Shown here: positions 7,021 through 52,955 of the stretch, piece after piece | How positions within the stretch are numbered: the first letter of the stretch is position 1 | How the letters are laid out: the number at the start of each line of letters is the position of its first letter | Source of the DNA: Malacoraja senta | Lineage: Eukaryota | DNA: 60,000 bases | Assembly: GCA_038087875.1 (NCBI GenBank) | Contig: CM075989.1 | Location: 15,192,001 to 15,252,000, forward strand | Direction of reading: 5' to 3' | Made by a program: the position numbers and the translations under genes | The notes under the pieces: model-generated | What the model was told of the DNA's origin: nothing | Database searches by the model: none | What the model saw: the letters and a program-made list of their open reading frames with translations, nothing else

Positions 7021-7089
7021 AATGCTGCAATGGCTCAACAGAATTGATTGTTCACATGGAAGCCTTAAAAATGAGTATAATTAAGATCC

Positions 7090-27927: not shown

Positions 27928-28760
27928 AAAACAGAAAAAATGATGGAAGTACTTAGTCTGTCAAGCAGCATCTGCGGAAGGAGAGGCCAATTAATGTTTC
28001 AGGTCAGGGATCCTTCCTCATTGGGGGATTGTGTGAAAGCTTTACGGAGCGCCTGCACTCTGTCTGCAGGAGTGGCATGAGCTTCTGGTTGCCTGCCATT
28101 CAGATTTACCATCCCACCCCCACTCAGACCCTATTTTCTGACCCTCCTGCACTGCTTCATTGAGACCCAATGTAAACTTGAGGAACAACACCTAATTTCC
28201 TGCCTGAACATGTTGCAGCCTGCAGGACCTAATAATGAATTTCCCAACTTCAGATATCGAGACTGACAATTTATGCTTTATATTCCTGTACCCCCCCCCC
28301 CCATCCTTATTTTGTCATTTGTATATTCTGGCCTGCTCAGCACATTTCAGTAGGCCAGACTATATCACAACATCACACAGATTTCACATTAGCATCATAT
28401 CACACACACAAAGGAATTTAACCATCCATTCAAATTTGTCTAGGATTTCACTCTATTACCTTTGTTCCACTTATTGCCACCCCCACCTTCCCTGTGCCTT
28501 GGACTTGCTTTCTCTCTTTCTCAGTTCCGATGATGGGTCTTCAACCTGAAATATTAACTAGCTGTGTAAGAAGGAACTGCAGATGCTGGTTTAAACCGAA
28601 GATAGACACAAAATGCTGGAGTAACTCAGCGGGACAGGCAGCATCTCTGGAGAGAAGGAACGGGTGATGTTTCGGGTCGAGACCCTTCTTCAGACATTTC
28701 TCTTTCCACCAATCCTGTTTGACTGGCTGTTCTTCCATCAGTTCTGTGTTTGTTTCAACT
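27928..28760 (+). mobile_element. Older Penelope-like element: inverted terminal repeat, GIY-YIG C-terminal remnant, hammerhead-like core; younger copy nested at ~28565-28695
   Basis: 28040-28255 translates to remnants LLHC..ETQCKLEEQHLISCL..LQPAG; AGTTCCGATGATGGGTCTTCAACCTGAAATATTAACT at 28523-28559; reverse cores at 27991-28020 and 28663-28695. Confidence 0.72.
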
Positions 28761-31962: not shown

Positions 31963-32024
31963 CAGGCTGCGGAAAAATCAATGCATCTTTGCGGCTGTGC
32001 TGACGAGTGCCGTCTGGTGCTTTT

Positions 32025-32650
32025 GCGGAACAAATTGGAGGAACTGCACCTCAGCACCTCAAATTTCGCTTGGGCAGCTTACAACCCAGCGGTATAAATT
32101 TGATTTCTCTCACTTCAAGTAACCCTTGCTTTCCCTCTCTCTCTCCGTCCCTCCCCCATCCTGGTTCTCCGACTAGTTTAACTGTCCTTCTGATTAATTT
32201 TACTGATTGTAGGCCTCCTTGTCACCTTCCCTTCAGCCAACAATGAACCATACAACATTTCCTCATCATTGACAAAAAAAGGTGGAGTAACTCAGTGTCT
32301 CAAGAGAAAAGGAATAGGTGTCGTTTCGGGTTGAAATGTCATCTGTTACTTTTCTTCAGAGTTGTTGTCTGTCCCGCTAAGTTACTCCAGGATTTTGTGT
32401 TTATCTTTGCTGTAAACTAGCATCTGCAATTCCTTCCTATACATTACCTTAGCATCGTCTGCTTTGATCTGTCGTCTTCGCGCCTCACCCTTCCTTATCT
32501 CCATGTCTCCCTCTCCCCTGACTGTTAGTCTGAAGAAAGGTCTCGACCCGAAACTTCACCCATTCCTTCTCTCCAGAGATGATGCTGCCTGTCCCGCTGA
32601 GTTACTACAGCATTTTGTGTCTGTCTTCGGTGTAAACCAACATCTACAAG
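32025..32650 (+). mobile_element. Penelope-like element 3' end (GIY-YIG tail, 3' UTR, hammerhead-like core 32527-32560) with nested fold-back copy ~32270-32442
   Basis: AAATTGGAGGAACTGCACCTC..TTTCGCTTGGGCAGCTTACAACCCAGCGGT (KLEE.HL..FRLGSLQPSG); AGTCTGAAGAAAGGTCTCGACCCGAAAC. Confidence 0.78.
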
Positions 32651-32712
32651 TGTCCTCTGCCCGGCCTGCAGGCGGTGTCACCTCAGGGACCGGCGGGGGA
32701 GGGCCTGGGCTG

Positions 32713-33007: not shown

Positions 33008-33037
33008 ATGGAGGGTCGGCGACGGCCGGCGAGCTCG
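33008..33037 (+). CDS. TEX9: TEX9 putative coding exon 1 (MEGRRRPASS)
   Basis: Strong Kozak GCCATGG in CpG island, donor TCG|GTGAGA, phase 0 fits exon 2. Confidence 0.68.
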
Positions 33038-33246
33038 GTGAGAGGCGGCCGGAGGGAGGGAGGGAGGCTTTGCACCGGCAGTGAGGGGCTCGGATTCATT
33101 CTCCAGAAACCGGTTCACTCGCTGATATGTTCTGTTCGTTTACCCGGTCATTGCCGCATAGGGTCTGACCGGAGGAGGGGACTCGGGCTTCATCGCCATT
33201 GAGGCGGTGCCGTTCCCTTCCAAAGGACCAGGCTTGTGAACCACAC

Positions 33247-33345
33247 TGAAGATAGACACAAAATACTGGAGTAACTCAGCGGGTCAGGCAGCATCTCTGG
33301 GGAAAAGTTATAGGTGACGTTTCGGGTCGCGACACTTCTTCATTC
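33247..33345 (-). mobile_element. Penelope-like terminal-repeat fragment
   Basis: GAAGATAGACACAAAATACTGGAGTAACTCAGCGGG...GGTGACGTTTCGGGTCGCGACACTTCTTCA. Confidence 0.7.
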
Positions 33346-34124
33346 TGAGCAAAGATACCTCTGGTATCTTTGATTCTGAGGGTCAGGGGAGAACTACACT
33401 GGTGTTGCAGGGGTTAATGTGCATCTGGACCTACATGTGTTATTGTGTACAGTATTAGGATTTTGTTCATTGCCAGTTATCTGCTGATCATTAAAAAAAT
33501 AATTGTAGTCACAGCAGCTCAGGTTTCAGCAATTCAATAAACACGACAAGCACAGGCTTATACGCACAGAACACATTTGAGATTATTTTCTTCCATAATA
33601 ACGAAACTTTTCTTTCTGGTGAATACTTGTATTTGCTTCATAAGTTTGGGTGGTTAAGTGAGTCCATTATCAAAAACTCATCTTCTATTGAACTCTTTGA
33701 GCAAATGACATGAATTTCATTAAATATATCTCATGATCCCCCTCCCTTAGTATCCTAAACGGTTTATAGTCATTGAGTACTCTTGAAACTTAAACCTGGC
33801 AAAAAATTTGCTCTCCAGCCACTGACCCCATTCCTCTTGTAAGCAATTGTAAGACATTTCAATCAGGTTGTTTGCAACTGTGGTATCATATTCCACTTCC
33901 ATTGAGCTTCACTTCTTTATATATATATATATATATGCCATCACAAAGACAGATAGTTTATTTATACCTGGTTTTGTTCACACCTTGGCTCTTTTGCTGA
34001 AGCCCTCATTCATGCTTTTGTTACCTCAAGACTTATCTATTGCTGTCTTGGCTGTCCTATTTTTACAAAAAGTAAAGGTCATACAAAACTCTTCTGCCTA
34101 CATCTAAATTATCTCTGAATTATA

Positions 34125-34640
34125 GATGCAGCAGGCAATTAGGAAGGCAAGTTATATGCTGGCTATCAATTGAAAAGGATAGGACTCAAAGATTAAATAT
34201 GTTTTCTTACAATTATATAGGGCCTTGGTGAGATTACATTTGGAGTAACATGAACAATTTTGGTTTCCTTGCCTAAAACAAAGTTTGTTTTGGAGGGAGT
34301 TCAGTGAAAATTCACTGGTCTATCATGCAAAGGGAAAGTGAGCAGGTTAGGCCTCTGTATAGTTTAGAAGAATAAGGGGTTGCATAATTGAAACATATAA
34401 ATTCTCAGAGGGCTGGACAGGATAGCTTTGGGGAAAATATTTTCCCTGGGTGTAGAGTCTGGAACTAGGCTTCACAGTCTCTGAATAAAGATGATGGCCA
34501 TTTAGCACTGGTAGGGGGGAAAGGTAGGGGGGAAAGGGTTCTTCACTCAGCGCATGGTGAATCTTTGAAATTTTGCATTTTGAATTGTGGAGGCCTCATT
34601 ACGATTCCATGCAAAACTGTGATAAATAAATTTTAGGGTT
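34125..34640 (+). mobile_element. Old CR1-type LINE fragment
   Basis: Degenerate match to the CR1 copies (GCAGGCAATTAGGAAGGC..AGGGCCTTGGTGAG..ATTGAAACATATAAA). Confidence 0.65.
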
Positions 34641-36120
34641 TTATGAATTGAGCAGGAAATTATTTTGAGGTAAAAGCATCTGACTCACCAGGTGATTGTT
34701 ATCTTATTTTTTAGGTCTTTTGATCACCCCTGCACTTGCAGGTCTACATTATTTCCCCATAAATTAAACATATAAAATATATAACTATGCAAATTGATAT
34801 AAAATCCTAATCTTGTTAGTCTTATCTTGTTATCTTCAGCTTCAACATTCCCTCTAATTTCCCAGTCAGTAACCTTAAGGTATCTGTAGTTCTCCAATTC
34901 TCTCCTCTTGATCAACCCTGATCAATCCTGTTGGAAGCTGAGCCTTGAGTTGCCAAGCCTTACACCCTGGAATTTTCTCCCTAAATCTCTTTGCTTCTCT
35001 TTTCCACTTTACTTCACCCTTAAAATCCATCATTGACCACGTTTTATTGTTATCTGCCCTAATATCTTCTAATGTAGTTCAGCATAAATTCTCACTTGAT
35101 AATGCAAATGTTTTGTTGCTTTATTACCTTATAGACATTGCACAAATGGAAGTTAGTCACAATTATAACGGAAAAGCCAATGATGAAAGGAGTGGTGGCA
35201 AAAATAGTGATCAATTTATCTGCTTTATTTGTCATTTGTGAGACAAATGTTGGCAAGGATACTCAAAAGGCTCTTCTTCAAAACACCTCATTGGAAAAGT
35301 AGCATTTCAGTAGTGCACCACACTAAATAATGCACATGCAATATTAAAAACAATATCCCTGATACAGTAAAAATCTGATCAAATGCTCTCTGGTTATTCG
35401 GAAATTCCACTGGCTTGGCATCTGACTCACCAGGTGATGTTTGCTGTTCTCCTTGTCCACTTTCCAGGACCCTGTTTCTTGTGCTCCCTGTCCTCTCCAT
35501 GAGGTCCTGATTCCTATGCTTCCTGACCATTTGATGGGGCCTGGGACCAGGTTTCTGCATTCCCCGTTGCTTGCTGTGACCCTGTTTCTTATGTTTTCAG
35601 TCCATTTGCCAAAGTTTAGTTTCCTCATTCTTTGCTCACTCACTGGGGACCCTGTTCCTTTGCTCCATTAAAACATACCTAGTTCTATTTCCCACACTCC
35701 TTTTAAACATACAGTGTTCACTATACGTTATCACGTAACAACTTTTTTTGTGAAGAACTGAATTAAATGTGTTGGAGTATTATTAAAATAACACCTGGTA
35801 TTCCAGAAAATCTGCCGGATAAAGCACCGCCAAAGCCATGAGCTTGCCGGTTTAATGAAGTTTTACTATATGATCATGGACTCTAAGATGAAGTGTATGG
35901 AACTAGGATGTGAGTGGTATTCCATATATCCAGAGAAGTGTTTGTTGTAATAGACCAGAACAAATTGAACCTAACAGCATTTTTGCCAATTGCTTGTCTT
36001 AATATTTTCTTGATTGTTTGATCAATCAATTTCTGCTTTTGCCACTGATACAAAAAAAAGTTATAATATTAACTTTTAAAATAACTTTTCAGTATTGGTT
36101 ATGTGTTCTTTTGAATCTAG

Positions 36121-36215
36121 ACGAAGAAAGCAATGTCTAATAGATCTGGCTCCCTGCCATCAGCTTCAGCAAAGAAAGTTCCTCCAGATTTACTCACTAA
36201 AGAAGAAGAGTACAA
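36121..36215 (+). CDS. TEX9: TEX9 coding exon 2 (TKKAMSNRSGSLPSASAKKVPPDLLTKEEEYK)
   Basis: AG acceptor 36119-36120, GT donor 36216; PDLL..EEEYK matches remembered TEX9. Confidence 0.88.
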
Positions 36216-36299
36216 GTACGTATGTTTTTCTTCATTGGGTTATATTTTAATGTAGTTATTCATTGCCTATTTTTAATAGAACATGTCATATTTAATTAG

Positions 36300-36363
36300 G
36301 AAATTAAATGCAGAATTGGAAGCAAAAACAGCTGAACTGGTGCGGCAAGCTGAAGAAGTTATG
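36300..36363 (+). CDS. TEX9: TEX9 coding exon 3 (KLNAELEAKTAELVRQAEEVM)
   Basis: AG 36298-36299, donor GTGAGT; matches TEX9 RLNAELQAKTA motif; phases consistent. Confidence 0.92.
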
Positions 36364-36524
36364 GTGAGTTCGAGTGAGTTATGAAGTTATTGCATTTTAG
36401 TCATGCTTTAAAATGCTTTAGTAAGGTGGTGCCTCCAAATGCTGACTCATACCATCTACGGGATATTGGAGGTGCTAACTTACATGGCACAAACAGGCAA
36501 TGAAGATATCCAACAAATGAAAAT

Positions 36525-37192
36525 TAATTATCATCCTCTGACATTCAATGGCATTATCATTACTAAATCCCCAATTATCAAAACCCTGGGATTACCACTG
36601 ACCAGAAACTGAACTGGAGTAGTCATTTACATAATGTAGCTAGAAGAGTAGGTCAGAGCCTTGGAATCGTACAGTGAGTAATTCACCTAATTCCCCAAAT
36701 CCTGGTCACCATCTACAACTGAAGTCAGGATAGAAATACTCTCCACTTGCCTGGATGAGTGCAGTTTCAACAACACTCTAGAAGGTCAACACCATACAGG
36801 ACGCCATACCATAGCCGACTTGAAAGGCACGCCATTCACAACCATTCACTCACTCTTCCACCGGAACACAAGAGCAGCAGTTTGTACCATCTGCAGGATG
36901 CACTGCAGCTAACTCACTAAGACTCCTTAGACAGCACCTTTGAAAACCATGACCTCTACCAGCTAGAAGAACAAGGGCAGAAAAAGAATGGAAACACCAC
37001 AGTGTAAGTTGTCCTCCAAGCCACACACCATCATGACAGAAATATATCACTGTTTCTTCACCTTGAACTCTTTCCAAAACTGCATTGTGGATATACCAAA
37101 CCTCAGGGATTGCACTGGTTCAAGATGGCAGCTTACCACTGCCTTCTCAGGGGCAATTAGGGTTGCGCAATGCCTACATCCCTTGAATGAAT
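36525..37192 (+). mobile_element. Old LINE 3' fragment (CR1/L2 superfamily)
   Basis: Remnant peptides DQKLNW, YSPLAWMSA and tail GGGCAATTAGGG...ACATCCCTTGAATGAAT. Confidence 0.55.
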
Positions 37193-37317
37193 AGGGGGGA
37201 AAAAAATCACCTATACCAGTATTCCTTCTCCTTTTACAGATAGTTTGTTTTACAGATACAGACATGTTGATCTATTATATTGCTGAATGTCTCAAATAGT
37301 TGAATATCTGTGTTTAG

Positions 37318-37394
37318 AAGGGACAAGAGGAAATGTTTTCTCAATCAACGCCACAGTATGAAACATCTGCATTAATGGACAAAGAGAAACTGAG
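37318..37394 (+). CDS. TEX9: TEX9 coding exon 4 (KGQEEMFSQSTPQYETSALMDKEKL)
   Basis: TAG acceptor, AG|GTAACA donor, phase 0 to 2, open frame. Confidence 0.75.
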
Positions 37395-37509
37395 GTAACA
37401 TAATTAACCTCTGAAGAAATTGATTGTTATGAATGAATATTATGCTTTATAAATATGTTTAATACATGAAAACACCCAGTCCTTTCTCAAGCAGCTTTAT
37501 GTCATCTCT

Positions 37510-37765
37510 GTTTAAGAAATAACTGCAGATGCTGGCAAATCGAAGGTAGGCACAAAATGCTGGAGTAACTCAGCGGGTGAGGCAGCGTCTATGGAAAGAA
37601 GGAATTCACTAGTCTTACTGTCTCCACCTATATTCTTTCCTTGTCCCGCCCCCTCCCCTGACATCAGTCTGAAGAAGGGTCTTGACCCGAAACGTCACCA
37701 ATTCCTTCTCTCCAGAGATGCTACCTCACCCACTGAGTTACTCCAGCATTTTGTGTCTACCTTTC
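37510..37765 (+). mobile_element. Non-coding Penelope-like insertion with best-preserved hammerhead-like core
   Basis: Inverted arm 37510-37606; core at 37669-37696; 10-bp direct repeat TGTCATCTCT at 37500-37509 and 37766-37775. Confidence 0.85.
37666..37699 (+). ncRNA. Minimal type I hammerhead ribozyme-like motif
   Basis: AGT-CTGAAGA-A-GGGTCTTGACCC(stem II)-GAAA-CG-TC-ACC; core CUGANGA/GAAA/UH present, stem III is the palindrome ACGT, stem I only 2-3 bp. Confidence 0.6.
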
Positions 37766-37989
37766 TGTCATCTCTTTTCATTTAAACAGCATGTACTCTG
37801 GTTTTCTGTTCTACCAAAGTCAATAACTTTACTACCCTATATTATACATTTTTTTCCTAATGTTTTACCATGCACATAACCTTTCTATATTCTTTACAGA
37901 TTCTTTGTCCTCCTCAAACTTGCTTTCCCACCCGTCTTTGCCTTGTAAGCAATTCCAGCTATAATACATAATTCCCATAATTATACCAA

Positions 37990-38630
37990 GACTTGCTGGA
38001 ACTCCCAGTTGTGAGCTGTTTTAATTTCTCTTCCTATTCCCATATTGATCTTTTTATTATCGGTCTCCTCCATTACCAGAGTGAGGCCACACGCAAACTG
38101 GAAGAACAGCACCCCAAATTCCGCTTGGGTGGTCAACATCCCAATGGCATGAAATTGAATTCTCCAATTTCAGGTACCCATCCCCCTACTTACCTACGTT
38201 GCCCCCTCCCCACCTCCCTCATACACCCCTTTCTCCCTCGCCCCCATCACCCAGTTTCATTTTCCTCCTCAGTTTGCTCTGCTCCCTCTCCCGTACCTTA
38301 TTTTCCTCTTCCCCTGTTCCCTTTCCACCTGCTGTCCCCCTTTCACTTTTACATTTGTCTCCATATCTGCACTCTTTTGACTCCATTTCACCTCTAGGTT
38401 TTGTTATCATCTCCAACATCTGCCGATCACCCCTTCTAACCTGCATTCACCTATGACTTGCCATTTCTACCCACACTCCTTTCCCTCATCTTTTTTTACC
38501 AGCTATCTCCCCTCAGGTTCATGAGTCTGAAGAAGGTTCCCGACCCAAATCCTCATCTATCTACTTTCCTCCTCCAGGACTTTGCTTTTTGCTCAAAATT
38601 CCAGCATCTGTCTCCTGACCTTGCAGTTCA
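37990..38630 (+). mobile_element. Penelope-like element 3' fragment (GIY-YIG C-terminus + UTR + decayed core at 38524-38550)
   Basis: ELPVVSCFNFSSYSHIDLFIIGLLHYQSEATRKLEEQHPKFRLGGQHPNGM. Confidence 0.8.
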
Positions 38631-40269
38631 CTTGGAGCATGCTTCCATCTCCTTGTGCCCCAATAACCACAGATTTCAGTCCTCATCAGTGATCAAATCC
38701 TGTCCTGACATTGATCCTGAACGTTGGTCCCTGCACACTATAACTCTAGGCCCTGTTAAAATCTTACCATTTAAATTTATTTTCTTTCTAACTCTTTTTC
38801 TTGATATTTTGAGAGTGATTGCAGCAGTTTTATGACTGCTTAATCTAGTCAATCTGTATGCCCTCCTACAGCATTTCATTCTGTAGGTCACAATTGGACA
38901 GTAATTGTGTTCTCAACAAATTTAATTATAATGCCTTTAATTTTTAGTTCCATTTCATTTATGTTTATAGCAAACAAGTGCAGCCCCAACACAGCCCCTT
39001 ATGAAACACTACGCCATTATGTCAACTACCCTTTAGCTTTATGGCCTCTAGGCATCTCTTTATTTAATTGACTGTAATCCTCTTGATTTCATGGGTCATT
39101 ACCATTGCAATGATTCTTTGATGATATTTATTAATTCATTTTTGAAAATTCATATTATCTATTCTTTCTTTAAATTAAAATACTTGAATTCCTGACCTTT
39201 AATATAAACATTTGTACTAACTGCTTTCATAATTCTCCAGTGATTAGTAATTAGCCAATATTTGCTTTTAATTCCTTTGAAACTTTGGTTAGCCTTTTGC
39301 CACACTCAAATCAGAAATGTTATTGTTTTATTTCTAGTTTCTTGGTTTGTACATCTTTGGTGATTTCAGAAGTTTGTATCACTTCTTTTGTTTTACTTTT
39401 GTGAATAATAGCCTCCACTAACTGTTCTACGCCCACTTCACCAATTTCCACTTCCTTTGCTAGCTGAGACAAAATACTTACATTGTTTTTCTGCCATTTC
39501 TTTGTTCTCTTTTAGAAGTTTTCCCTCCTCCATCTCTCTCTGACTCACCGAGTGCTATAAAAACTGTCTGTCGCATTTGTGGTTTTGCTGCACTGACTGG
39601 GTCACACATTTCTTATCTTCTCTCAATGCACTTATGTGAACTTTTAATGAACTAATTTCTCTCCAGCTGTGTGACATTAATTAAATATTCTAAAAACTAA
39701 CATAATTGTGAATAATATTGCAGAGACGTTGTCAAGATAATGAAGTTGGCATTTTCCCAGTTTTAAAACAAACATGTTTATATTTCCACCAAAAGCTTGT
39801 TTATATTAATTAATAAGCTTTAATATTTGAAAACAATGTTAAGTGGGTAGGAGGAACAAGTAGAATATGACAAATTATAACTTTTTTATAATTCTAACAT
39901 AGCAATTAACCATATGAGAATGCACTGCCATCTTCTGTTCAGACAAATCATTAGTTAATCTGCAAAATGTAATGCTTTTGATGAAAGCAAGTAGTAGGTT
40001 AAGGTGTGTGAGCCAAAGACATTTATACTTCTAATGCACCATCCATTAAGTACTGATACCACAAATGTGCTCAGTCCAACTGTTGGTCAAAGATTCAATG
40101 CTTTCACATGCAGTGGATAATAATAAGCGAGTTTGATATTCCGAAAAACGCAAGGAATCATGGGATTTGTCAAAGGTCATTCGCCATAAAGAAAAAGCGA
40201 TCGAAGCACTGCCTTTATAAACTGTATAAATTCTTATCTTTATTCATAATTTATGTGTAAAAATATATT

Positions 40270-41250
40270 TAATCTGAGGAACGGGGTGCCAGGTAGCGGG
40301 AGAGCGGGGTGTAACAGCGAGAGAGAGAGAGAGGGCAGATGTGAGTGGGAGACAGGGGAGAGACATTCGCGGCTGCTGCGCGCACACAACCCGTGCCTCA
40401 TCCACAGCCAGGATCGAACCCGGGTCCCCAGCACCACAAAAGCTGCCGATCCACCACTGGGCCCTCCCCGAGTGTTCCATCCCCGCCTGGGGGACGGCCG
40501 GGGCGACCCCGGAACGACAGGACACTGGTGGCCCCAGGCCCACAGCCAGCGTGGAGAAGAAGCGCCAACCCCAGCTCAACTCCGCCTGGCCAACCGACAG
40601 CCCCAGACCGACGGGACACCGGCAGCCCCAGGCCCACAGCCAGCGCGGAGAAGAAGCACCAACTTCAACCCAACCCCGCTCCAACTCCCGAGGAACCCGC
40701 TCCCCAACAGGCCGGGGCCCGCCAGCCGCACACCCCGCCCCACCCAGCAGCTGTCGGCCAACCCCCCCGGTGCCAGCGAAAGCCAAGCACTCACCATCAA
40801 CAGGGATACACACAAAACGCTGCAGCAACTCAGCTGGACATGCAGCAACCCCGGAGAAAAGGAATGGGTGACATTTCAGGTCGAGACCCTTCTCCAGAGA
40901 TATTGCCTTACCCGCCGAGCCACCGCAGCACCCCGTGTGCATCCCCGCCGATGGCTGGCGCTCGGCCCCAAGGGGGCCAACCGACAAGGAGAGGCGCAGC
41001 CGACGCCCCCCCCCCCCCCGGGAGCTGGAGCAGAACCGAGCCCGAGCCAGCGCCCCCCCCCCCCCCCCCGCGCCGGCTGCAAGTCCAGGGCCACCGGTGC
41101 TCCGCCAGCCCAGGGCCACTCTGGACACCTCCGGCCGCCCCCAAGCAACTCAACAGCGCCCGCAGCGCCGGAGACCCAGGCCCGACCCCGAGCACGGACG
41201 AAATGCAGGTCTGCACCTTCGCTTACCGAAGCATAAAGCAATAAAAACGA
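40270..41250. promoter_or_regulatory. CpG island inside TEX9 intron 4 (candidate promoter/enhancer)
   Basis: ~1 kb of very high GC/CpG in an AT-rich intron; only small parts are SINE (~40405-40465) or Penelope-like (~40805-40900). Confidence 0.6.
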
Positions 41251-42097
41251 CAAAATCATCGTAGCTAGGTAAAGGAACAAAAAATAGAACTAATTCAGTT
41301 TGAAAGCAGTATTTTCTTCCCTAGAAGAATCAAAGCTGGAATATACAGATGAAACGAAGGTTCAGCTGCTCAGTTACCAACAATGTTTATGGCGAGTGAC
41401 CTATAACCTGGGCATGCGCAATCGGAATACCGAGCTCGCTTATTTGATGTATTGGAAGACCGAGAGATGGAAAAGGAATAAAATATCTGTTAAAAAAAAT
41501 GCATCCGCACCTTCAAGAGAATTGCACTTAAAGTGCCTGTCTAGTTTTTTTTTTTTTACTCATTGTCTTCATTTGGAGATTACTTATCACCACAGATCTC
41601 CCTTTAGATTTGATCACAGTTTCATTCTGACAACTGCAAAAGTGCTGGTTTATGTATAGTTAATAGGAGGTGACATCTGAGTGTAGAAAACCAGATGGTA
41701 GTTATATAGTCCACCTCCTGAGATACATGCCTTAATTTTTACATGATGTGTGATTTAGCAATCCAATTAACATCACACTAAATTAATTCAAAGCAAGGAT
41801 AGTGATTTTAGATTAAATAGAAACATACACTCAGACATAAACAATGAGTTTAAAACTGAAATTTAAGTATTTGAGTATCTAAGTTGTTGCATAATTTAAT
41901 ACGGTAATCTGCAGATAAATATGTGGAGCGAAACTTGAATTTAACAGTATTCTTCCAATACAGATTTAAAAGTAATATAATTAGTCATTTTGTTCATTTA
42001 GCGCCTGGATGAAATTATTTGGCCTACATATTTAAGGTAATTTAAAAGGTCAACAAATGGGAAAATATGTATTAATATACTGCTTTTTCTTTCCCAG

Positions 42098-42146
42098 AGA
42101 ATTGTTTTCTTTTGCCGGATCATCTTCTGAAAATAAAGTAACAAAG
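42098..42146 (+). CDS. TEX9: TEX9 coding exon 5 (ELFSFAGSSSENKVTK)
   Basis: Polypyrimidine tract + CAG acceptor, AAG|GTACCA donor, phase 2 to 0 bridges exons 4 and 6; sequence itself poorly conserved. Confidence 0.65.
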
Positions 42147-43419
42147 GTACCACAATAACTGAAAAATCTAGGCATGCATTTATTATACTTCATATTTAAT
42201 TAATTTGGAAGCAAACTGTAATTTAACCCAAGAGCTATCTTGGATAGAACTTTAAAGGCACATGACAATTAATAGCATCAAATATTATTAATGATTTAGA
42301 GAAAATGAAAATGTTTGCTGAAACTAACTGAAAATCCGATGATGTTTTTTCTTCATTTGTGCTTCTCTTTACATTGGTATATTACAGGAAAATACCATTG
42401 TTTATTTATATTTGGTCCAACCATATGATTCATTTACTCCACGATGATGTCGCTTGGAAAGGGCACAATTTTAATCAATTTAGGAAAATTTGGGAGCTGC
42501 TATTATAACCAGCATAAGTTTTGCTTGATTGCATTAGATATTTCAGAAGGCTAGTATTAATTATCATTCCAACAAACTAACAATTTAACTGACGATGATA
42601 GCACAGGAATATAGTACATTATTACTAGGTACAGTGCTTGAAGTTTAAAATTCTTTCTCTTGTCTTGAAAACCCTTAGAAGTTTGCCACTTACTAATTCC
42701 AGAAGCAATTCTATTTTTACTACTCCTTTTTCTGAGTTCTCTGTTGTCCTTGTGCCTCTTCAATTTGCCATTGGCTTTCAATTATCTTGACCTGCTTGCT
42801 GATATTCTTCCTTCCCTAATCTACATCTTTTAAATTCTTCCTTGAAATGTATTAACTTCTTGATCAAGGCTTTATTTACTCTTCCTAATCTCTTTCCATA
42901 TGCCTTTGTGACATAGGTGTCTATTTCAGCCATAAAATAATAGGTTTGCTCACAGTAATCGCATTTCCCATTAACTTTGCGGTAAACTATTCTTTGCGTG
43001 TTCCCGTCAATTGCACCATTCCCTCCCCTGATACATACCTGAGGTCACAGAATCGTAGAGCTTATACAGCACGGAAACAAGCACTTCGACCAACCTTGTC
43101 CATGCCAACCAAGTTGGCATGGCATACTGGGCTAGTCCAATTTGATTGCATTTGATTACACTTCAGTCACTTGCCCAACCTTGTTCCCTTAGAAGAAGAC
43201 CTCTCTAGCAGGGCTCTCTATTTCTTGAGTAAGGAAGCATTCTTGGACACACTCAAGAAATCTCACCCTGTCCAAGCCCTTTACAGAATGGAAGAGACCC
43301 GTCAATATTTTGGAAATCTCCCACCAACACAGCCATATTATTTTTTCAGCTATCTGCAATCTCCTAATATATCTGCTTGTTAATGCAGCCTCATCAAAGT
43401 GAACATCCTGCTTCGAAGT

Positions 43420-43620
43420 TACAATGGCAAATTAATTTACAATCCAAGATCTTTGGAAGGTGTGAGGAAAGCAGAGTACCCAGGAGAAAATTATGCATTC
43501 ACAGGAAGAAGATGCAAGCTCCATACAGACCACACCAGTTCCTATACAGCGCCAGTCAGGTTGAACTCGGGTCACTGGAACTATGAGACAGCAGTTCTTC
43601 TTGCTGTGCCAGTTTGCTGC
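43420..43620 (-). mobile_element. V-domain SINE fragment
   Basis: GTGAGGAAAGCAGAGTACCC..TGCAAGCTCCATACAGAC..GGTTGAACTCGGG. Confidence 0.65.
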
Positions 43621-44104
43621 CAGTCCTTTCTATTTTTTATGAGCCTTCAGTTAGTGCTTTAAAAGGCTCTGAATAAATGTGATTTTTCCAAATTAACATT
43701 TTCTAATTTCAGCCACATTTGGCAATGATACCAAGGAAAGCAAACTGTTGACCTAATAAAGTAGGAGAAAAATAATATACAAAAATAGGAAGCCAAAAAA
43801 AATAAGCTGTGCAAGCATCCTAATGAGTACCCGTGTGTTGCTTTCTTTTTAGCTGAAATGTGAATGCATAGAGCACATACAAACCACTTCACTCACTTAT
43901 TCATTTTCATTTTCCTTGTTGAGTAACCAATGTAACAATGCAGAAAAATGTAATTTTGGATTTAGTAATTTGCTGTCCCCAAATTTTAAATGATCAGATG
44001 CCAATATTGATATTCTAACAATTTGCTTTTATAACAAACTATGAAACAAAACTTGCCTCCCTCCTCACTGCAAAAGCAATTCATTTTGTATGAATCGCTG
44101 TATG

Positions 44105-44362
44105 AATTGTGGAAACAGGCCCTTCGGTCCAACTTGCCCACACCGGTCAACATGTTCCAGCTACACTAGTCCCACCTGCCAGCATTTAGTCCATATCCCT
44201 CCAAACCTCTCCAATCCATGTACCTGTCTAACTGCTTCTTAAATGTTGAGATAATCCCTGCATCAACTACCTCCTCTGGCAGCTTGTTCCAAACATCCAT
44301 CACCCTTTGTGTAAAAAAGTTACCCCTCAGATTCCTATTAAATATTTTCCCCTTCACCTTAA
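44105..44362 (-). mobile_element. CR1-type LINE 3' end
   Basis: FNRNLRGNFFTQRVMDVWNKLPEEVV..FKKQLDRYM. Confidence 0.8.
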
Positions 44363-44699
44363 AATTATGGAATAAAATTATCGAATAATTTTACGAAATG
44401 CATGCTCTTACTTTATCAGTAAACCAAAATTTTCAGATAAATAAAATCTTCAGTTGTTAAATTTACCATTTTTAGCCGTATAAAGGAGATATAAACATAT
44501 ATACAGCTCTCAGAACATGCAGTGAGTAATTCTGAATTATATGCACAGTTGGAATGTACTATAGTACAAACAGCATCGCATTTATAAGAAAAGATTCTGT
44601 TACCACAAATGAGAAAATAATCCAATTTTTTAAGGAATAATGTTTTAGGAATAAGTAATGGCTTATTAATAGTGCTGTCCAGGGATCTTTTTTCACGAC

Positions 44700-45330
44700 G
44701 GGGAACAAATGGTATGCTTGCCTTCATTCGTCAGGGCATTGAATGTAAGAGTCAGGAAGTCTTATTGCAGCTTTATAAAACTTTGGTTAGGCCGCATTTG
44801 GTTTGGAGCATTGTGTGTAGTTCCGGTCTGTCTCCCCATTACAGGAAGGTGTACAGCTTTTGGAGGGGGTGCAGAAGAGCTTTACCAGGATGGTGCTTGG
44901 ATTGGAGGATATTAACTAAAAGAAGGGGTTGGACAAACTTGGATTTTTTTCTGGAGGCTGAGGAGAGACTTGATAGAAGATTATAAAGTTAAAAGAGGCA
45001 TTGATAAGGTGGACAGTCAGAACCCAGGATGCAAATGTCAAATACTAGAGGACAATGCTGTAAGGTGAGAGGAGGGAAATTTAATGGTGATGTATGGGGC
45101 GGATTTTTATATGCAGATGATGATAGGTTCCTAGAATATATTATCAGGTGTGGTGGTGGAAGCAGATACAACAGTGGCATTTAAGATACTTTTCGATAGG
45201 CACATGAATATGCAGGGAATGGAAGGATGTGGATTAAGTGCAGGCAGAAGGAATTAGTTTAATTTGGCATCATGTTACAGACTTCATGGGCTGAATGATT
45301 TGTTCCTGTGCTGCATTGTTCTATGCTCTA
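44700..45330 (+). mobile_element. Degenerate CR1-type LINE 3' fragment
   Basis: NGMLAFIRQGIECKSQEVLLQLYKTLVRPHL. Confidence 0.8.
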
Positions 45331-46674
45331 TATTGGGCTTCACTTTAATAATTTCATGCTTCATACCAAAGATGTGACAAGATAGGACTTAATGAGAACG
45401 ACGTTTGCGGCTTAAGACCCTGAAGTGAAAGCTATATCCCTAACTTTGCAGCTCAGATGCAAGAGGATTACTAATTGCAAAATCTCTTCTGTTACACCTT
45501 TGGGGGGAAAAACGGTGTTTTAAAACTTGTGTTCTCCAAGTTTATTTGATTTGTTACGACTAAATTCCAAGGAATGTCGTGGTATTTGTGATTTAGTATT
45601 TAGAACTAATATATTAAAAGGAAGAAATCAACATAAAATAGTTATAATAAAATTATTGCATTGCAATTTTGTTTTGGTGAATACAAATCACTATACTTGC
45701 TAATATGTTAACAGTCTATCAAACAATGCAATGTTTTGCTGTATAAAATGGCTTCTCACTTTGCAAGTTTGATATAATAAATTGTGACATTAAATAAATA
45801 ATATCCCAATTGTGCACCCGATGGCATGGTATTGAGTAAGCAATATATGACAAGATATTGATTGGTCATATTAATCATATTATTTAAGTTATTTCTACCA
45901 GTAAATACTGATGTCTGTTGTCTCCACCATTTAGGATTTCTATATATTCTAAAAGTAAATAAGTTGAACTATTTATCCTGTTTATAAATTATTTTTTAAT
46001 GTTTCAATTGTTTCTAAATTCACATGGTTCATGTGAATTAAAGATGAAAAGCTCCTATGAAGTATTACATATAAATGTGCTGTTTAAAATAATGGATATT
46101 TGTTGATCATAAAGCATATCTTCGGTCAGCAGCAAATTCAACACTACTACTTTCTGTCCATGTGAGAATATGACTATACTTTATAAATTAACTACTGAAT
46201 GATGGATGTGAAAATTGGTGAGCGATTAGGCTAGGGACTCCAAACATGATTACCTGCTGCTCTTTGAATAGATAAAGTACTCAGATTTCTCCATGAATAG
46301 CCTAGACAGCCAATCATTTTAAACACCAAAGTCAATATGCCTTCAATAGCTCTGTTAAAATACTGATGTATTTCCTATGCGGTTACTTAAATACAGATGG
46401 TGTAGTTTGCATTGCAGTTGCATAAATAAAAATGCCTTCACTCACTGATAGAATTACATGTGAAACACATTTTGTTGAAGTGAGGAAACATCCAGCATTT
46501 TCATATGTTACACTGTATGTTGTGGAAATAGGCATTTTTTGAAGGTATGAACTTGCAATGGATTTTAGATAGAAATTATATATTAAAACAATTTACTTAT
46601 AAAACTTGTAATTACAGTACCCAACTGTATATCTAAATTATTAATTGGAATTATGCATCAACTATGTAAGGCAT

Positions 46675-46860
46675 CTTGGTGGTTCGGCAGTTCGCACTGC
46701 CTCTCATAGCTCTTAACAACCTGGGTTCAATCCTGACCTCGAAAGCCGCCTGTGTGGAGTTTGCATGTTCTTCTCATGACTGGACAGGTTTCAGGGTTTT
46801 CTCCCATATATCAAAAACCTGCTGAGAGGTTAATTGGTTTCCGTAAATTACATGAGTGTA
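46675..46860 (+). mobile_element. V-domain SINE fragment
   Basis: B-box GGGTTCAATCC then TGTGTGGAGTTTGCATGTTCT. Confidence 0.65.
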
Positions 46861-47099
46861 GGTAAATGGTAAAAATAATTAAATAGTTGGAGAGTAATGC
46901 AATGGGATTACCTTGTCGGCAGATGGTAGCCAAATAGCTTCTTGCATCGCTATAAGTAATTATGGCCAAAATTTTTATTTTATATAGCCACCAACCATTT
47001 GTAATTTGCAAGGGATTAGTTTGACTTTGTCTTTATTTAAAAAAAACTTTCAAGTGCATTTGTTTTCTCACTCTCTTTTTCCATTCATTAAAAAACAAT

Positions 47100-48690
47100 C
47101 TGACACTAAAGTGGCTGATATTGTAGTCAGAGCAGATGGTTATCAAAAGTTACAGCAGGATCTTGATCAGGTGGGCCGAGAAATTCATATAAGTGAGAGG
47201 TATTGCAAGTGTTGTAGAGCAGATGAATCTTGGAGTGTGGGTACATAGTTCCCTGAAAGTGGTGTCACAGGTAGATAGGATAATCAAGAAGGCTTTTGGT
47301 ACATTGGCCTTCTTCAGTAAGCATACTGAATATAGAAAGATAGACACAAAGTAAGTCAGTAGGTCAGGCAGCATCTCTGCAGAAAAATGATAGGTGATGT
47401 TTCAGGTGGGGAACCTTCTTCAAACTGAAAATAAGGGGTGGAGGCAGGGGAGGGGGGTTGGGGCGAGAAAAGACCAGGAACAATCAGGACTGGCCACAAA
47501 TGACCGCGGGCATGGCAATGCCTGGTCGGTCCATTGTTGGCTAGTGAAGGTGTGATCTCAAGAGGTAAAAATAATATGGAGAACTGTGGAACTGGTGAAA
47601 CAACTAGGTGGAGGAAGGGAGCAAGGGGGGAGGGGGAGGAGGAGGAGAGTGGAGTGAAAGTAGAAGGTACTTAAAATTAGATAATTCAATGTTCATACCA
47701 CTGAGTTGTAAGCTACCCAAGCGAAATATGAGGTGATGTTCCTCCAATTTACATGTGGCCTCCCTCTGGCAATGGAGGAGGCCCAGGACAGAATGTGAAA
47801 GGGAGTTGAAATCTTGGCAACCGGGAGATCCCGTAAGCCTAGGCGGACTGAGCGTAAGTGTTCTGCTAAATGCTCGCCGAGTCTACGTTTGGTGTTGCCA
47901 ATGTACAGGACTCCGCATTGGGAACACTAATGCAGTAGATGAGGTTAAATGAGGTACATGTAAACCTCTGATGAAGGGTCCCAATCTGAAACGTCGCCCA
48001 TCTTTTCTTCCCAGAGGTGCTGCCTGACCCACTGAGTTACCCCAGCACTTTGTGTCTATCTTCGGTATAAAACAGCATCTGCAGTTCTTTGCTTCCCTAT
48101 ATTGAAAATAAAAGATGGGATGTTATGTAACAATTGTACAAGACATTGTTGAGGCCGCATTTGGAGTATCGGTCGCCCTGCTACAGGAAGGATGTTGGGA
48201 AGCTGGAAAGAGTCTAGAGAAGATTTATGAGAATGTTGCCAGGATATGAGGGCTTGAGCTACCGGGAGTAGTGGGGCAGGCTAGGACTTATTCCTTGGTG
48301 TGCAGGAGGCTGAGGGTGATCTTATGGAAATGTAAAAAATCATGAGTGGAATAGATAGGGTAAATGCACAGTCTTTTATACAGAGTAAGGGAATCAAGAT
48401 CCAGAGGACATAGGTTTAAGGTGCGAGGGGGAAAAATTTAATAGGAACCTGAAGGGCGATTTCTCATGCAGAGGGTGGTGGGTTTATGGAACAAGCTGCC
48501 AGAGGAGGAAGTTAAGACAGGTACTATAACATTATTTAAAAGACATTTGGACAAATACATAGATAAGAAAGATTTAGAGGGACATGGGCCTCTAAATTAG
48601 GGCAGATAGGACTAGTGTAGATGGGGCATCTTGGCCGGCTTGGGCAATTTGAGCTGAAGGGCTTATTTCAATGCTGTATGATTCTATGGC
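47100..48690 (+). mobile_element. Degenerate CR1-type LINE split by a Penelope-like insertion
   Basis: DTKV..YQKLQQDLDQ at left, continues after 48100 with GAGGCCGCATTTGGAGTAT and CR1 3' end. Confidence 0.75.
47338..48097 (-). mobile_element. Penelope-like element with near-complete GIY-YIG endonuclease remnant (47671-47966) and inverted terminal repeats
   Basis: Minus strand reads RFTCTSFNLIYCI/CSQCGVLYIGNTKRRLGEHLAEHLRSVR..LPVA..LGLLHCQREATCKLEEHHLIFRLGSLQLSGMNIE; hammerhead-like cores at 47393-47426 (-) and 47968-47996 (+, CTGATGA). Confidence 0.88.
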
Positions 48691-49224
48691 AATACACAAA
48701 TAAAGTTATCAACTTTAAAAGCAGTCAAATCAATGATTCTTTAAAAAGACATATGAAACCCAATTATTTCTTCAATGAATCCTGTATAAAAATAATAATT
48801 AGAATAAAAATATAAACTTTCATAATGATGACAGTGACAATGTTTTTTAAATTGCTCTTCCAAACATCTTGGTTCCTTTCTTGTAAATGCTTTCTATGTT
48901 GTTTTCTACAACTTGAAAACTTCAATAGGCCAAATATGTTACATGTATCCATGATTGTAGGGTATGCTGAATGCAAAGATGATTTGCTTGCTTTAAAACA
49001 AATATATGCAGTTCACACCGTGGCTTCTTAACTTGTTTTCTAATTATAATCTTGCTGTGAGTGACCTACTTTACACGTAACAGGAAGTTGTTGTTTTTGT
49101 CAATCATTGTTGCTTTATAAAATGTCTTGCTTTGTTGAAAGTCATATCTATGTGTCGTTGGTTTTTTTGTTGGTTAACATAATTAATTGGGGGGTTTTTC
49201 ACTCCTATTTTACCTGTATTGATA

Positions 49225-49525
49225 CATTGACAATAGGTGCAGGAGTCTCCATTCGGCCCTTCGATCCAGCACCGCCATTCAATGTGATCATGGCTGATCA
49301 TCCACAATCAGTACCCCGCTCGTGCCTTCTCCCCATACTCCTTGATTCAGCTAGCCCGAAGAGCTCTATTTAACTTTCTTTTGAATGCCATCCAGTGAAT
49401 CAGCCTCCACTGCCTTCTGAGGCAGATAATTCCACAAATTCACAACTGTGTGAAAATGTTTTTCCTCATCTCAGTTCTAAATGGCCTACCCCTTATTCTT
49501 AAAATGTGGCCCCTTGTTCTGGATC
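49225..49525 (-). mobile_element. CR1-type LINE 3' end
   Basis: SRTRGHILRIRGRPFRTEMRK and conserved 3' UTR. Confidence 0.85.
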
Positions 49526-49834
49526 TAAGGATTCCAGTTTTCCAGTGGTTGTTCATGTCATTTTCTAAAATTAAAGTTCCTAATCTCAAAAAATTATATA
49601 TTATGGAAATCTGAACTAAAAACAGAAAATACTGCAAGCAAGCAGAGATATGCATTTAACATTTTGGTGAAAAAAAGCATATTTTGCAAATGTTTGGTTT
49701 GTACATGAATATGCCTACATGTCAATATGGTGACAAAGTCAGAATGAAACAAAAGAGGCTCTATTTATTGCTGGGTATTGGGATGGGGACGTAGAGAGGG
49801 AAGAAATATAGCTAGATTAATTATCTAGCTGTCT

Positions 49835-50017
49835 TTAGGGAGTCTTTAGAGAGTTATATTTAACCTTTAGGGCTAAAGGAATCAAGGGATATGGGGAAAA
49901 TGCTAGTACAGGGTACTGATTTTGGATGATCAGCCATGATCATATTGAATGGCGGTGCTGGCTTGAAGGGCCAAATGGCCTACTCCTGCACCTATTTTTT
50001 ATGTTCCTATGTTTCTA
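49835..50017 (+). mobile_element. CR1-type LINE 3' end
   Basis: GGATGATCAGCCATGATCATATTGAATGGCGG...CCTACTCCTGCACCTA + CTATGTTTCTATG tail. Confidence 0.85.
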
Positions 50018-50054
50018 TGACATGAAGGAATCAAATAGTTTGTAAATAATGGAA

Positions 50055-50154
50055 TCATCAGTCTGAAGAAAGGTCTCGACCCGAAACGTCACCTATTAAT
50101 TCACTCCATAGATGCTGCCTCACCTGCTGAGTTTCTCCAGCATTTTTGTCTACC
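50055..50154 (+). mobile_element. 100-bp hammerhead-bearing mini-insertion with TSD
   Basis: Core CTGAAGA 50063-50069, GAAACGTC 50083-50090; 14-bp direct repeat TGTAAATAATGGAA at 50041-50054 and 50155-50168. Confidence 0.85.
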
Positions 50155-51274
50155 TGTAAATAATGGAAGTTAAGTTGCATGGCGCCTGTGACATGGGCAA
50201 TAATTGCAATGGCCCTTCCCGATGGCTAGAGGAGGGCCTGAGCTCATTTGTAATGATTTCGTTTCTCAACTGACAGGTTGCTTGGAAACCCTCTCCTTTC
50301 TGGATTCTTTGTTTGAGATTTGCACAGTCAGCCAAAATCAGCGTTTAGTAGCCTTGGCAGAAACAATGGGATATAATCAAATTTGCTGATGTATATGGTA
50401 CATTGACTAGGAAGGAGCAAAAAAAAAAAACCCAGAAGTAAATAGATTAACTTTTAAATACTTTTTCACAAATTTAGAAAACCATTGTATTGCCACATCT
50501 GCAAATCTTTCAAAATACTTTTTGATGTAAGAAAGCATTGTAAGTCATTTATCCTCATTGGAAAACATGTATTTTGCTAAATATCTTCATCAAATAATTG
50601 TGTGTACAAGACTGATACAAATGTATGCACCATCAGGAAGATGATGGCTCCTATCTACCAGCTTACACTTGTACATTTATCAATTACAATTGTACTGCAG
50701 TAGGACTGATGCAAAAACCTCAATTAAAAAATTGCTCTGCATCTAATCCTTTCACATTGCCAATTCATATTGGGGAATTGAAATTCTCTACTCCTATAAT
50801 CCTGTTCCTTTTACATCTTTCCATGATTTGCCAACATACCTGCTCCTCTATTTCGTGCTGACTTGGAAGGCCTTTAATATAATCATATCAAATTCTTGCT
50901 TTTTTCCCCCAAAGCTCTGCTCATATGGGTTCATTTGAAGAGCGTTCTGAGTCATCCTCCCCCAGTATTGCAGTGATGACTCCTAGATCAATAATGCAAC
51001 GCCCCTCCTCTTTACATCTCTCCCTAGCACGCCTGAAATTTCAAACCAAAATTATTTAACAGTGTCTTATGAGTATTAAAGTGCTTTTGCACCATTTATT
51101 TGCACACTTCTCCTTGAGATTTCCCTGCATCGAGTTCTTAGGCGTTGTGAATATATTTTGTCTGTTGTTAGCTTTAAATACTATCAAATGAAAGACATGA
51201 TACTGCACATTTTATAATCTTAACTGTATCGTGACAGTAATTGTTTTCTTTTTGTTTTCAATTGTGTACTTTAG

Positions 51275-51351
51275 AACAAAAGTAAGATTGGATTGAGGAA
51301 CGTAGAACAAACCAGACCATGTTCAGAAAGCAAAGGAAAGAAAATGACAAG
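51275..51351 (+). CDS. TEX9: TEX9 coding exon 6 (NKSKIGLRNVEQTRPCSESKGKKMT)
   Basis: T-rich tract + TAG acceptor, AG|GTAAAA donor, phase 0 to 2 joins exon 7; KGKK resembles TEX9 NKGRK region. Confidence 0.75.
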
Positions 51352-52430
51352 GTAAAATCTTCTAAACATCCATACCATATATCTGATATTGCACTTAGTG
51401 TTCAAAAAGACCTGATAAGCAAGATGTTAAATGTGCAGAACCATATTAACAATTACCATTATTTATTTATATTTAAGTTCCTAGTCAGCTTTGTGTAACC
51501 TAAACTGGAACTAAGATTAAAGGATAGAGTGTGGAGTTCTAAGGCTGCAAGTAATTTTGGCTAAGCAGAGACCATTTAGTTCTTTAAGCCTGTTCTGACA
51601 ATTAATAAGATCATTGCTGATCATTGATTCAGCTTCAGGTACCATCTTTTCTCTCCACTCCTTCATACTTGCAGTTAACTAAAATCTTTCAATCTCAGAT
51701 TTAAAATCGAATGTGAATTGCTGATCGCAGTAAAATAATTCCAAATTTCTACCACCCTCTGCAGGTGGCAGAGTTCCCTAATTTCTCTTCTGAAAGGCAA
51801 ACTTTTAGTACTTTAAGACATGTTATCTAGCAACCTAGTGCCATTTTTTTCTGCATTGCAAATCTGAAAATCTATGGAATGAAATGCAGTTTAACCATTT
51901 TTAAATTGATTTACACTAATCTTGAAATTCATTACAGTTCACTTTTGTACTGAGAAGGCAGCATTCATAATTCAACACTTGGTGCATTGCCCAGTAAAGT
52001 AGCTTGTTGTTCTAAGGAGTATCTGTCAAAGTCACTCTGGAACAACTGTGTTTTCTTTGCACTGCAACAGTTCTATAAAAAGTAGGTCCTGGCCTAACAA
52101 CCTGATACATGCAAACCTCTTTTAACTTTGTAACAGATGTTTCTTTCTTTAAATTTACTTAGTACCATTGTATTCTGTTTCTAAAGTTTCACTATGTAAA
52201 AGTAGGAAAAAGGGGCTAAAATTCGAAAATAAACAGAGTAAAGCAAATTATTACAAAATCCTGAATACTAACATATTTTTGTAGTCTAATTACAAACACT
52301 TATTAGCTACAAAGAATGTACAGGCCCTTGTTTGAACACCTCTGACTTACAAGACAAAATCCATCTACATTTTAGCAAGACAATTATTCAATAAACTCTG
52401 CTGTAAGCTTAGAACATACAGACATACACA

Positions 52431-52432
<2 letters not shown>

Positions 52433-52469
<37 letters not shown>
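52433..52469. repeat. (TTA)n microsatellite
   Basis: ~12 perfect TTA units. Confidence 0.95.
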
Positions 52470-52474
<5 letters not shown>

Positions 52475-52955
52475 TATTTGTTTGCGTTTGTTCCAGATTC
52501 CTTGTAAAGTGAACCGTTCTTTGAAAAGAGCGCATTGGATTGGGAAAATGTAAAGGGAACTATGAAATGAATGAGTTAATTTGTCAAAATGTATCTGACT
52601 AGCCAATTATGAATTTTTAAAATACGTGAAATTTGTTCTGGTGCACGTCACTTTTCATTCTATAAATTTAAATCAGATCGAGTAAAAATTATATATGAAA
52701 CAGAATGCCCACTGGATTAGAATTATATTTTTGTATCCATACATTTTTAATGTACTTTAAATAATTTAATGATTCAGCCAACACGGTTTGGGGTGCAATA
52801 TTTTCTCACTTACACCCAAGTGAGCATAACTTGATTTTATTTATTTAATAATAACTAGTATTTTGATGTGTTCTAATTTTAAATATACCAGTTCAGCAGA
52901 AAATTATTTTCTGAACTGAAAAGAGGAAAATAAATAAGTATTTTTTTAATTTCAG

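Follow-up and report, generated by a model that had tools for sequence, protein, structure and literature searches.

Dispersed insertions of a Penelope-like element with a minimal hammerhead motif in a skate genome, and the clustering of their 5' ends at the edge of the motif

TEX9 and the insertions around it

The window considered here is a stretch of 60,000 nucleotides from the skate Malacoraja senta, which contains the gene TEX9 (Table 1). An exon of this gene at 37312-37394 is present in an RNA-like contig, and another, at 52957-53130, shares 95-97% identity with three skates and 74-84% with sharks and other rays. The exon matches confirm what a preliminary description of this DNA had proposed, namely TEX9 with five sense copies of a hammerhead ribozyme motif in its introns. 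Four antisense copies are also found there (5:4), a ratio with no strand bias and of low statistical power. With regard to other repeats, RT-bearing LINE remnants lie at 8872-10140, 24814-26229 and 30080-30550, a Tc1-like transposase remnant at 228-1329 on the minus strand, and two tandem arrays devoid of the ribozyme motif at 5717-6278 (183 bp, 3.1 copies) and 7318-7795 (70 bp, 6.9 copies). A 32-bp minisatellite of 7.2 copies (32700-32931) is located just upstream of the TEX9 start codon, and insertion I11 ends beside it at 32649.

A recognisable motif is present at all 16 sites that had been listed previously, the one given as 14473 lying at 14474. The string used for that list is matched with at most three mismatches at 7 sites of the 60-kb window and at none in 100 shuffles. 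A search profile made from 20 pieces of the window (threshold of at least 12 bits) gave 30 matches in the window and none in 10 shuffled windows. Joining two matches that belong to one arm, leaving out a 24-nt scrap and adding the diverged copy at 28527 resulted in 29 arms, which correspond to 19 insertions. The earlier list had missed the copies at 18505-18567, 19590-19645, 32332-32361 and 59142-59167. Five short motifs sought across the window revealed no further arms, including no overlooked short arms. From the density of about one insertion per 3 kb it follows that many sense motifs are tolerated in skate pre-mRNAs.

Table 1. Features of the window. Signed numbers are relative to the predicted cut site of the ribozyme motif; long and short refer to the 3' end of an arm.
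Feature	Position	Strand	Remarks
TEX9	33008..58964	+	Start codon 33008; eight exons matched: 33008-33037, 36121-36393 (two exons), 37312-37395, 42096-42146, 51248-51349, 52954-53148, 58875-58964; protein extends past last match
I01	3739..3842	+	Solo long arm; starts at cut site (+1, 2-nt microhomology); 10-bp target duplication
I02	11869..11935	-	Solo short arm; start ~+9 to +13; without ribozyme
I03	13305..13477	.	Inverted pair, long and short; 18-bp target duplication
I04	14414..14565	.	Inverted pair; fold-back at TCAG-T-CTGA palindrome; two head-to-head motifs
I05	16468..16668	.	Inverted pair, decayed; both arms end -28 to -32
I06	18416..18623	.	Inverted pair; subfamily with other stem II and GUU triplet; 15-bp target duplication
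I07	19509..19694	.	Inverted pair; fold-back in stem II; 15-bp target duplication
I08	27929..28560	.	Inverted insertion, diverged subfamily; short minus arm ends -26; plus arm with GIY-YIG remnant ~28022-28254 and motif at 28527 with 4-bp stem I
I09	28562..28696	-	Solo long arm; start -29; directly behind 28527 motif
I10	32270-32443		Inverted insertion nested in I11 3' UTR; fold-back in stem II
I11	32020..32649	+	GIY-YIG C-terminal remnant 32046-32108, 3' UTR, motif at 32530
I12	33240..33345	-	Solo short arm, antisense, TEX9 intron 1; start -26 to -32
I13 (focal), left target-site duplication	37495..37509	.	15 bp, 1 mismatch against right copy
I13, inverted left arm	37510..37606	-	pLTR piece +4 to ~+104 past cut site, with tail (long 3' end), without ribozyme
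I13, right-arm start	37607..37665	+	Pyrimidine-rich pLTR ahead of ribozyme; other genomic copies align from 37607
I13, TCAGT	37664..37668	+	Half of TCAG-T-CTGA palindrome; GT is stem I 5' strand; 5'-end boundary 37666-37667
I13, minimal type I hammerhead motif	37669..37698	+	Predicted cut after 37696; consensus of PMC4209133 Fig. S3
I13, right arm past cut	37699..37760	+	Ends +64 (short 3' end, without tail)
I13, right target-site duplication	37761..37775	.
I14	37987..38568	+	Older copy; GIY-YIG C-terminal remnant 37987-38180, 3' UTR, broken motif at 38527
I15	40798..40941	.	Inverted pair; microhomology joint; right arm too decayed to class
I16/I17	47327..48097	.	Single inverted insertion; degenerate target duplication; minus arm: frameshifted GIY-YIG 47670-47976, 3' UTR, motif 47396-47423, short end; plus arm: 47967-48097, start -28, long end
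I18	50056..50155	+	Solo short arm; start -33; 14-bp target duplication
I19	55294..55415	+	Solo long arm; start -30; 10-bp target duplication
I20	59070..59167	-	Short arm, antisense; start ~-24

The focal stretch at 37495-37775 is one inverted two-arm insertion within a 15-bp target-site duplication. The motif assigned to it beforehand (37500..37775) is there, whereas the inverted structure and the duplication had been overlooked. Its predicted hammerhead consists of the core (37669-37675), an extra A (37676), a 4-bp stem II (37677-37688), GAAA (37689-37692), CG (37693-37694) and a GUC ending at 37696, with a self-complementary, loopless ACGU and a stem I of 2 bp. The TCAGT directly ahead of the core resembles both an initiator and a 3' splice site. 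The nearest motif on the same strand, at 38527, is broken. Both the left and the right junction sequences are present in runs X1, X2 and X10, which carry three coded species labels, so the insertion is old and shared; no empty target site was seen in these runs. Just past the cut, a pyrimidine tract closing in CAG (37699-37713) reads like a strong splice acceptor, through which sense intronic copies could be exonised.

Identity, anatomy and state of the copies

The copies can be traced to a Penelope-like element (PLE) through endonuclease remnants. The frameshifted remnant at 47670-47976 scores 0.93 to a GIY-YIG cluster in a protein atlas and matches 49 proteins, including the C-terminal GIY-YIG of RT-EN polyproteins. 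The best homologs, P0070 and P0076, combine RT and GIY-YIG; together with P0056 they match this remnant with E-values down to 4e-18, and all three contain a CX2-5CxxC linker, which, when placed between RT and EN, is a mark of the Neptune and Nematis clades (PMC8557442). The remnants in the window begin past the linker position, so that the linker is known from the homologs alone. Clade and transcript structure are likewise taken from homologs because neither a PLE RT remnant linked to the copies nor a complete element was found in the window, and the clade is probably Neptune. The endonuclease pieces gave nothing in word-indexed protein searches, the short ones had no match in Pfam, NCBIfam or PDB, and the C-terminal piece drew a blank against the protein atlas. 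Three predicted proteins, P0056, P0054 and P0077, consist of unrelated parts that terminate in PLE endonuclease sequence. Two are annotated, in a stingray and a skate, and all three are likely annotation run-ins on PLE remnants.

The insertions themselves present a regular anatomy. In four copies the motif follows endonuclease-frame remnants at 230-400 nt, and from the motif to the two 3' ends of the element the distance is 64 or about 101-104 nt. Across the arms the 3' ends fall into two classes, at +58 to +71 and at +91 to +104. All 8 inverted pairs that could be classified join one long arm, with a tail of about 37 nt, to one short arm (chance 0.5^8), two further pairs being too decayed or interrupted to class; the solo arms comprise four long and four short ones, with I14 too decayed to assign. 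In five of the 8 pairs the two arms place each other among the three closest of 25 arms, while in the other three, which are decayed, the partner ranks 15-24. Target-site duplications of 10-18 bp are clear in 7 of the 19 insertions and degenerate in about four more. Two insertions are nested in older PLE pseudo-LTRs (pLTRs), I10 (32270-32443) in I11 and I09 (28562-28696) in I08, consistent with insertion into the element's own repeat. No partial tandem with direct pLTRs was found in the window; among the contig joints listed, one in run X21 leads from the short end into the endonuclease region.

Most of these traits are known from related elements. In the available portions of their descriptions, EN+ PLEs of the Neptune clade share the C-terminal GIY-YIG, the hammerhead in the pLTR, an inverted 5'-truncated copy, a 30-40 bp tail at one end, target duplications, palindromic inverted junctions and insertion into their own pLTR (PMC8557442, PMC3846280). 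The window differs in holding neither RT nor linker, and its duplications measure 10-18 bp against 8-10 in the rotifer. Poseidon of Anolis, PAc (Frangieh et al. 2024, PMC11167929), resembles the present copies in the two internal RT starts downstream of the ribozyme that define the tail, the cutting of both strands, the use of uncleaved RNA and AT-rich targets, although it likely belongs to another clade. The starts seem to lie at about +64 and +102 past the cut here, compared with +85 to +92 for the main PAc start, which maps 111-118 into an ORF whose cut lies at 26. Through the strict pairing of a long with a short arm, the two internal RT starts shown in vitro for the Anolis element gain support from genomic data of a second lineage.

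The motif also agrees with the minimal type I hammerheads of metazoan PLEs (Cervera & De la Pena 2014, PMC4209133) in CUGANGAH, a stem II closed by G-C, GAAA, the palindromic 15.2/16.2 and NUH. The focal stem I of 2 bp corresponds to the Culex and D. virilis rows of that work, with a stem II of 4 bp. The motifs described there are mostly dispersed singles, "probably related to truncated PLEs", or opposite-strand pairs 100-700 bp apart, and the searchable text of its supplement names no shark, skate or chimaera. Extrapolated from one window, the motif density here seems far above the 4,000-9,000 per genome given there. In three runs, the summed contig depth of the tail amounts to 5-8 x 10^5 times the single-copy depth, which is not a copy number, since the overlap of unitigs may raise it by a factor of up to about 31, leaving a cautious floor of about 2 x 10^4. 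An expansion of PLEs in shark introns has been noted before, according to the accessible text of 10.1101/443036.

Most of the motif copies are decayed. The catalytic core is retained in 8 of the 15 copies that span the motif, and core, palindrome and stem II in three, at 37669, 47968 and 55297, when a relaxed minimal-hammerhead fold is applied. An extra A between positions 9 and 10.1 is found in 15/15, and an extra nucleotide, a G10.1-C11.1 stem II, the palindromic 15.2/16.2 and the core all together in 3/15. In the stems 80% of cells are paired, and covariation does not rise above shuffle level (215 of 500). Non-CpG conservation is 95.4% (186/195) in the core against 91.2% in the tail (889/975, p 0.06) with variable columns removed, or 87.2% with all columns kept (p 0.0004). 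Selection on the core is thus inseparable here from subfamily and CpG effects. Six copies displayed no excess folding stability (z -0.40 to 0.69), the ribozyme-like fold of the focal monomer reaches -3.9 against a minimum of -5.5 kcal/mol, and with two strands the minimum fold differs from a double hammerhead. An Rfam search of the motif gave nothing at the gathering threshold or at E<=10, and pattern scans of metagenome, viral and prokaryote collections gave 0 loci. The motif is treated here as a predicted ribozyme; given its missing stem III loop and 2-bp stem I, it would be expected to cleave only as a dimer, probably with the assistance of protein.

On these grounds, and with a probability of roughly 0.8, the copies are dispersed, mostly dead insertions of a GIY-YIG PLE that carries the known minimal hammerhead. 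This supports the initial view of a very abundant, Penelope-derived minimal type I hammerhead that could fold only as a dimer; the element type, the ribozyme and the insertion anatomy are already known. The same description had also invoked a retrozyme-like system of short ribozyme-bearing RNAs; such a system, with self-cleaved RNAs, is not supported. Retrozymes are tandem units processed from cut to cut, and those of animals, of the non-LTR type, share with the present copies a type I hammerhead, a relation to pLTRs and short non-coding units (PMC7761336; Li et al. 2026, bioRxiv 10.64898/2026.07.22.740005, both as far as their available text goes). The latter source reports retrozyme-type arrays in one chondrichthyan genome, with a mean of 363 bp. 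The window copies are instead dispersed or head to head, measure 95-135 bp and are bounded by RT start sites and target duplications rather than by cut sites. No cut-to-cut unit is found, the 3' ends lying 58-104 nt past the cut. The retrozyme reading fails because there are no tandem ribozyme arrays (none of the 23 tandem-repeat rows of the window covers a motif) and because most arms run through the cut site; moreover, the copies bear the marks of PLE insertion, namely a target duplication, an inverted arm and a one-sided tail.

Position of the 5' ends

The 5' ends were curated by hand and then checked by alignment, and the counts refer to one 60-kb window and the contigs of four public runs. 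Among the 29 arms, two end at +5 to +40, 22 at -33 to +4 and five further upstream, four of which reach into the endonuclease; the focal right arm, I13R, begins at about -89. Twelve ends fall at -33 to -24, the front edge of the ribozyme. Per nucleotide, arms stop at a rate of 0.030 within the ribozyme, compared with 0.002 for the tail and 0.0005 for the upstream part; with one arm counted per insertion, the difference between tail and ribozyme has a p of about 1e-4. The cut site is crossed by 24/29 arms, which argues that the templates were uncleaved, in line with the in vitro behaviour of PAc, where ribozyme mutants still insert, the ribozyme cuts only in the presence of protein and unprocessed RNA is the substrate (PMC11167929, in the available text). 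As arms of both 3' classes stop at one and the same position, the stop follows sequence and not length. The defined short class put forward in the preliminary description has some foundation, since the 5' ends are strongly non-random, but its boundaries lie away from the cut site in these same 24 arms.

A matching boundary at 37666-37667 was found in the contigs of four runs (coded species labels A, B and F, and an RNA-like run of E). Among the best-supported rows, besides which 2344 further loose-end rows exist, loose ends occur at 37666 in 4/4 runs, with at least 380, 497, 430 and 59 records, and at 37667 in one run, with at least 292; 37668 is absent among the loose-end rows listed. The flanks at 37666 are long and AT-rich and agree with each other only to about 0.3, those of the 37664 class reading as pLTR instead. 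Of the 15 joints listed, 9 lead into 37664-37669. In two single insertions, I08 and I16/I17, a stub that ends at -26 or -28, respectively, is fused to an arm with endonuclease sequence, so the short arms likely derive from the coding transcript itself.

A literature search, mainly of open-access work, yielded no paper on the clustering of 5' ends or on hammerheads in the PLEs of cartilaginous fishes. The pile-up at the ribozyme edge is also without mention in the accessible parts of the Neptune papers (PMC8557442, PMC3846280), and is thus a feature without description in the papers found, as far as their available text extends. It bears on the in vivo role of PLE hammerheads, most templates having remained uncleaved.

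Possible origins of the boundary

The hammerhead is likely a passenger from the pseudo-LTR of the element, copied from uncleaved RNA. By analogy with PAc (PMC11167929), the element's protein would nick both target strands 10-18 bp apart, and reverse transcription would start within the RNA at two sites separated by about 37 nt. The outcome could be either a single arm or a long arm linked head to head with a short one. A pLTR-ORF-pLTR transcript would contain two copies of the priming site. Synthesis primed at the 3' one would read back into the endonuclease, whereas synthesis primed at the 5' one would run off the RNA 5' end at the TCAGT before the core and leave a ribozyme-plus-tail stub of 95-135 bp that resembles retroviral strong-stop DNA. 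The palindromes in the motif may then favour fold-back joints, and the dispersed copies are likely inert.

That run-off at the RNA 5' end explains the pile-up is the account we put forward, at odds slightly short of even. Position 37666 is the A of the initiator-like TCAGT, and an Inr-like TCACT is described in a rotifer pLTR (PMC3846280, in the part available). Several observations stand against run-off: the ends of I18 (-33) and I05R (-32) lie 2-3 nt beyond the proposed start on its upstream side, neither the three ends at +1 to +4 nor the eight within or next to stem II are explained by it, and part of the loose-end peak could stem from subfamilies with a different upstream sequence. In D. 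virilis, moreover, the reported transcription start precedes the ribozyme by about 120 nt, and an intron ends at helix I (PMC4209133, PMC2377424, available text), which counts against a start at the ribozyme edge. A cap-derived extra G was considered and rejected: the consensus ends in G in 5/5 listed 37666/37667 rows, but an extra G is seen in 0 of about 7 window copies. So was a second cut at an upstream AUC that would make the -30 end, where by inspection stems I and III amount to one pair each.

The same PLE origin could also produce the pile-up through the joining of arms or the stalling of RT, by way of palindromes, the likeness between reversed core and tail, and microhomology joints. 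The fold-back of I04 on the palindrome and of I07 and I10 in stem II is what this would predict, as are the microhomology joints in I15 and I16/I17, and palindromes at inverted PLE junctions have been described (PMC3846280, available part). Nevertheless, the solo arms I18 and I19, bounded by target duplications, stop at the same place without a partner, RT stalling would be expected before a fold is traversed, on its 3' side, and not afterwards, and the loose ends with unrelated flanks peak at 37666 among the rows listed. This explanation seems somewhat unlikely, although it deserves to be kept in view.

Cleavage of the template by the ribozyme in vivo might, in turn, account for a minor class of insertions starting at +1. 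I01 (+1), I03L (+2) and I13L (+4) do begin at the cut, and among the joints listed some lead into 37700-37701 in 4/4 runs. Yet three ends within 4 nt equal the expectation from the ribozyme-wide stop rate (about 3), a mismatch near +4 in the focal copy itself makes the read evidence less clear, and RNA-seq in Anolis revealed no ends at the cut (PMC11167929, in the portion available), so that such a class is to be regarded as unlikely.

More doubtful still is a non-autonomous family, SINE- or retrozyme-like, that would propagate itself through short RNAs of its own, mobilised in trans by the PLE protein. It would fit the defined 5' and 3' boundaries, the presence of the subfamily of I03, I06 and I18 in the window only as stubs, and a summed contig depth of stubs 77-169 fold that of the endonuclease in three runs, a ratio inflated by a diverged copy serving as probe; non-autonomous PLE derivatives have also been proposed (bioRxiv 10.64898/2026.07.22.740005, available text). 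It is highly improbable in view of the lack of tandem units in the window, boundaries off the cut site in most arms, the two insertions that fuse a stub to an endonuclease arm, the absence of a common extra 5' sequence that would mark a master copy, and intact motifs in only 3/15. The least probable reading takes the boundary for a 3' splice site as in D. virilis, with splicing intermediates or spliced RNAs fixing the 5' ends: besides the precedent of the intron ending at helix I (PMC4209133, accessible text) and several ends at -28, all five copies that run upstream have a pyrimidine tract and NAG|T directly before the core, two with a branch-like CTGAC, but spliced templates should add a shared upstream exon, with which the poor agreement of the loose-end flanks conflicts, the AG is retained in I05R, I18 and I19, the listed peak is at 37666 and not 37668, and the branch-like A lies only about 6 nt from the junction.

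Returning to run-off, its wider form holds that skate PLE transcripts start at the first nucleotides of the hammerhead and that priming at the 5' tail copy mass-produces uncleaved, strong-stop-like stubs. We advance this tentatively, as possible rather than probable. If true, it would give a one-step account of the vast numbers of solo minimal hammerheads in genomes, skate genomes would record the transcription-start, RT-start and cleavage sites of PLEs, with data points numbering in the tens to hundreds of thousands, and what PLE ribozymes do in vivo could be tested from DNA alone.

Two minor features accompany the arms. At 59167-59185 (plus strand) and at about 28745-28775 (minus strand), beside other arms, collapsed motifs are found in which the core runs almost straight into GAAAC and stem II is gone; these are likely template jumps. 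In TEX9 intron 4, a GC-rich patch at 40250-41230 includes the right arm of I15 (40890-40941), which shows many T-to-C and A-to-G changes, possibly as a result of GC-biased conversion.
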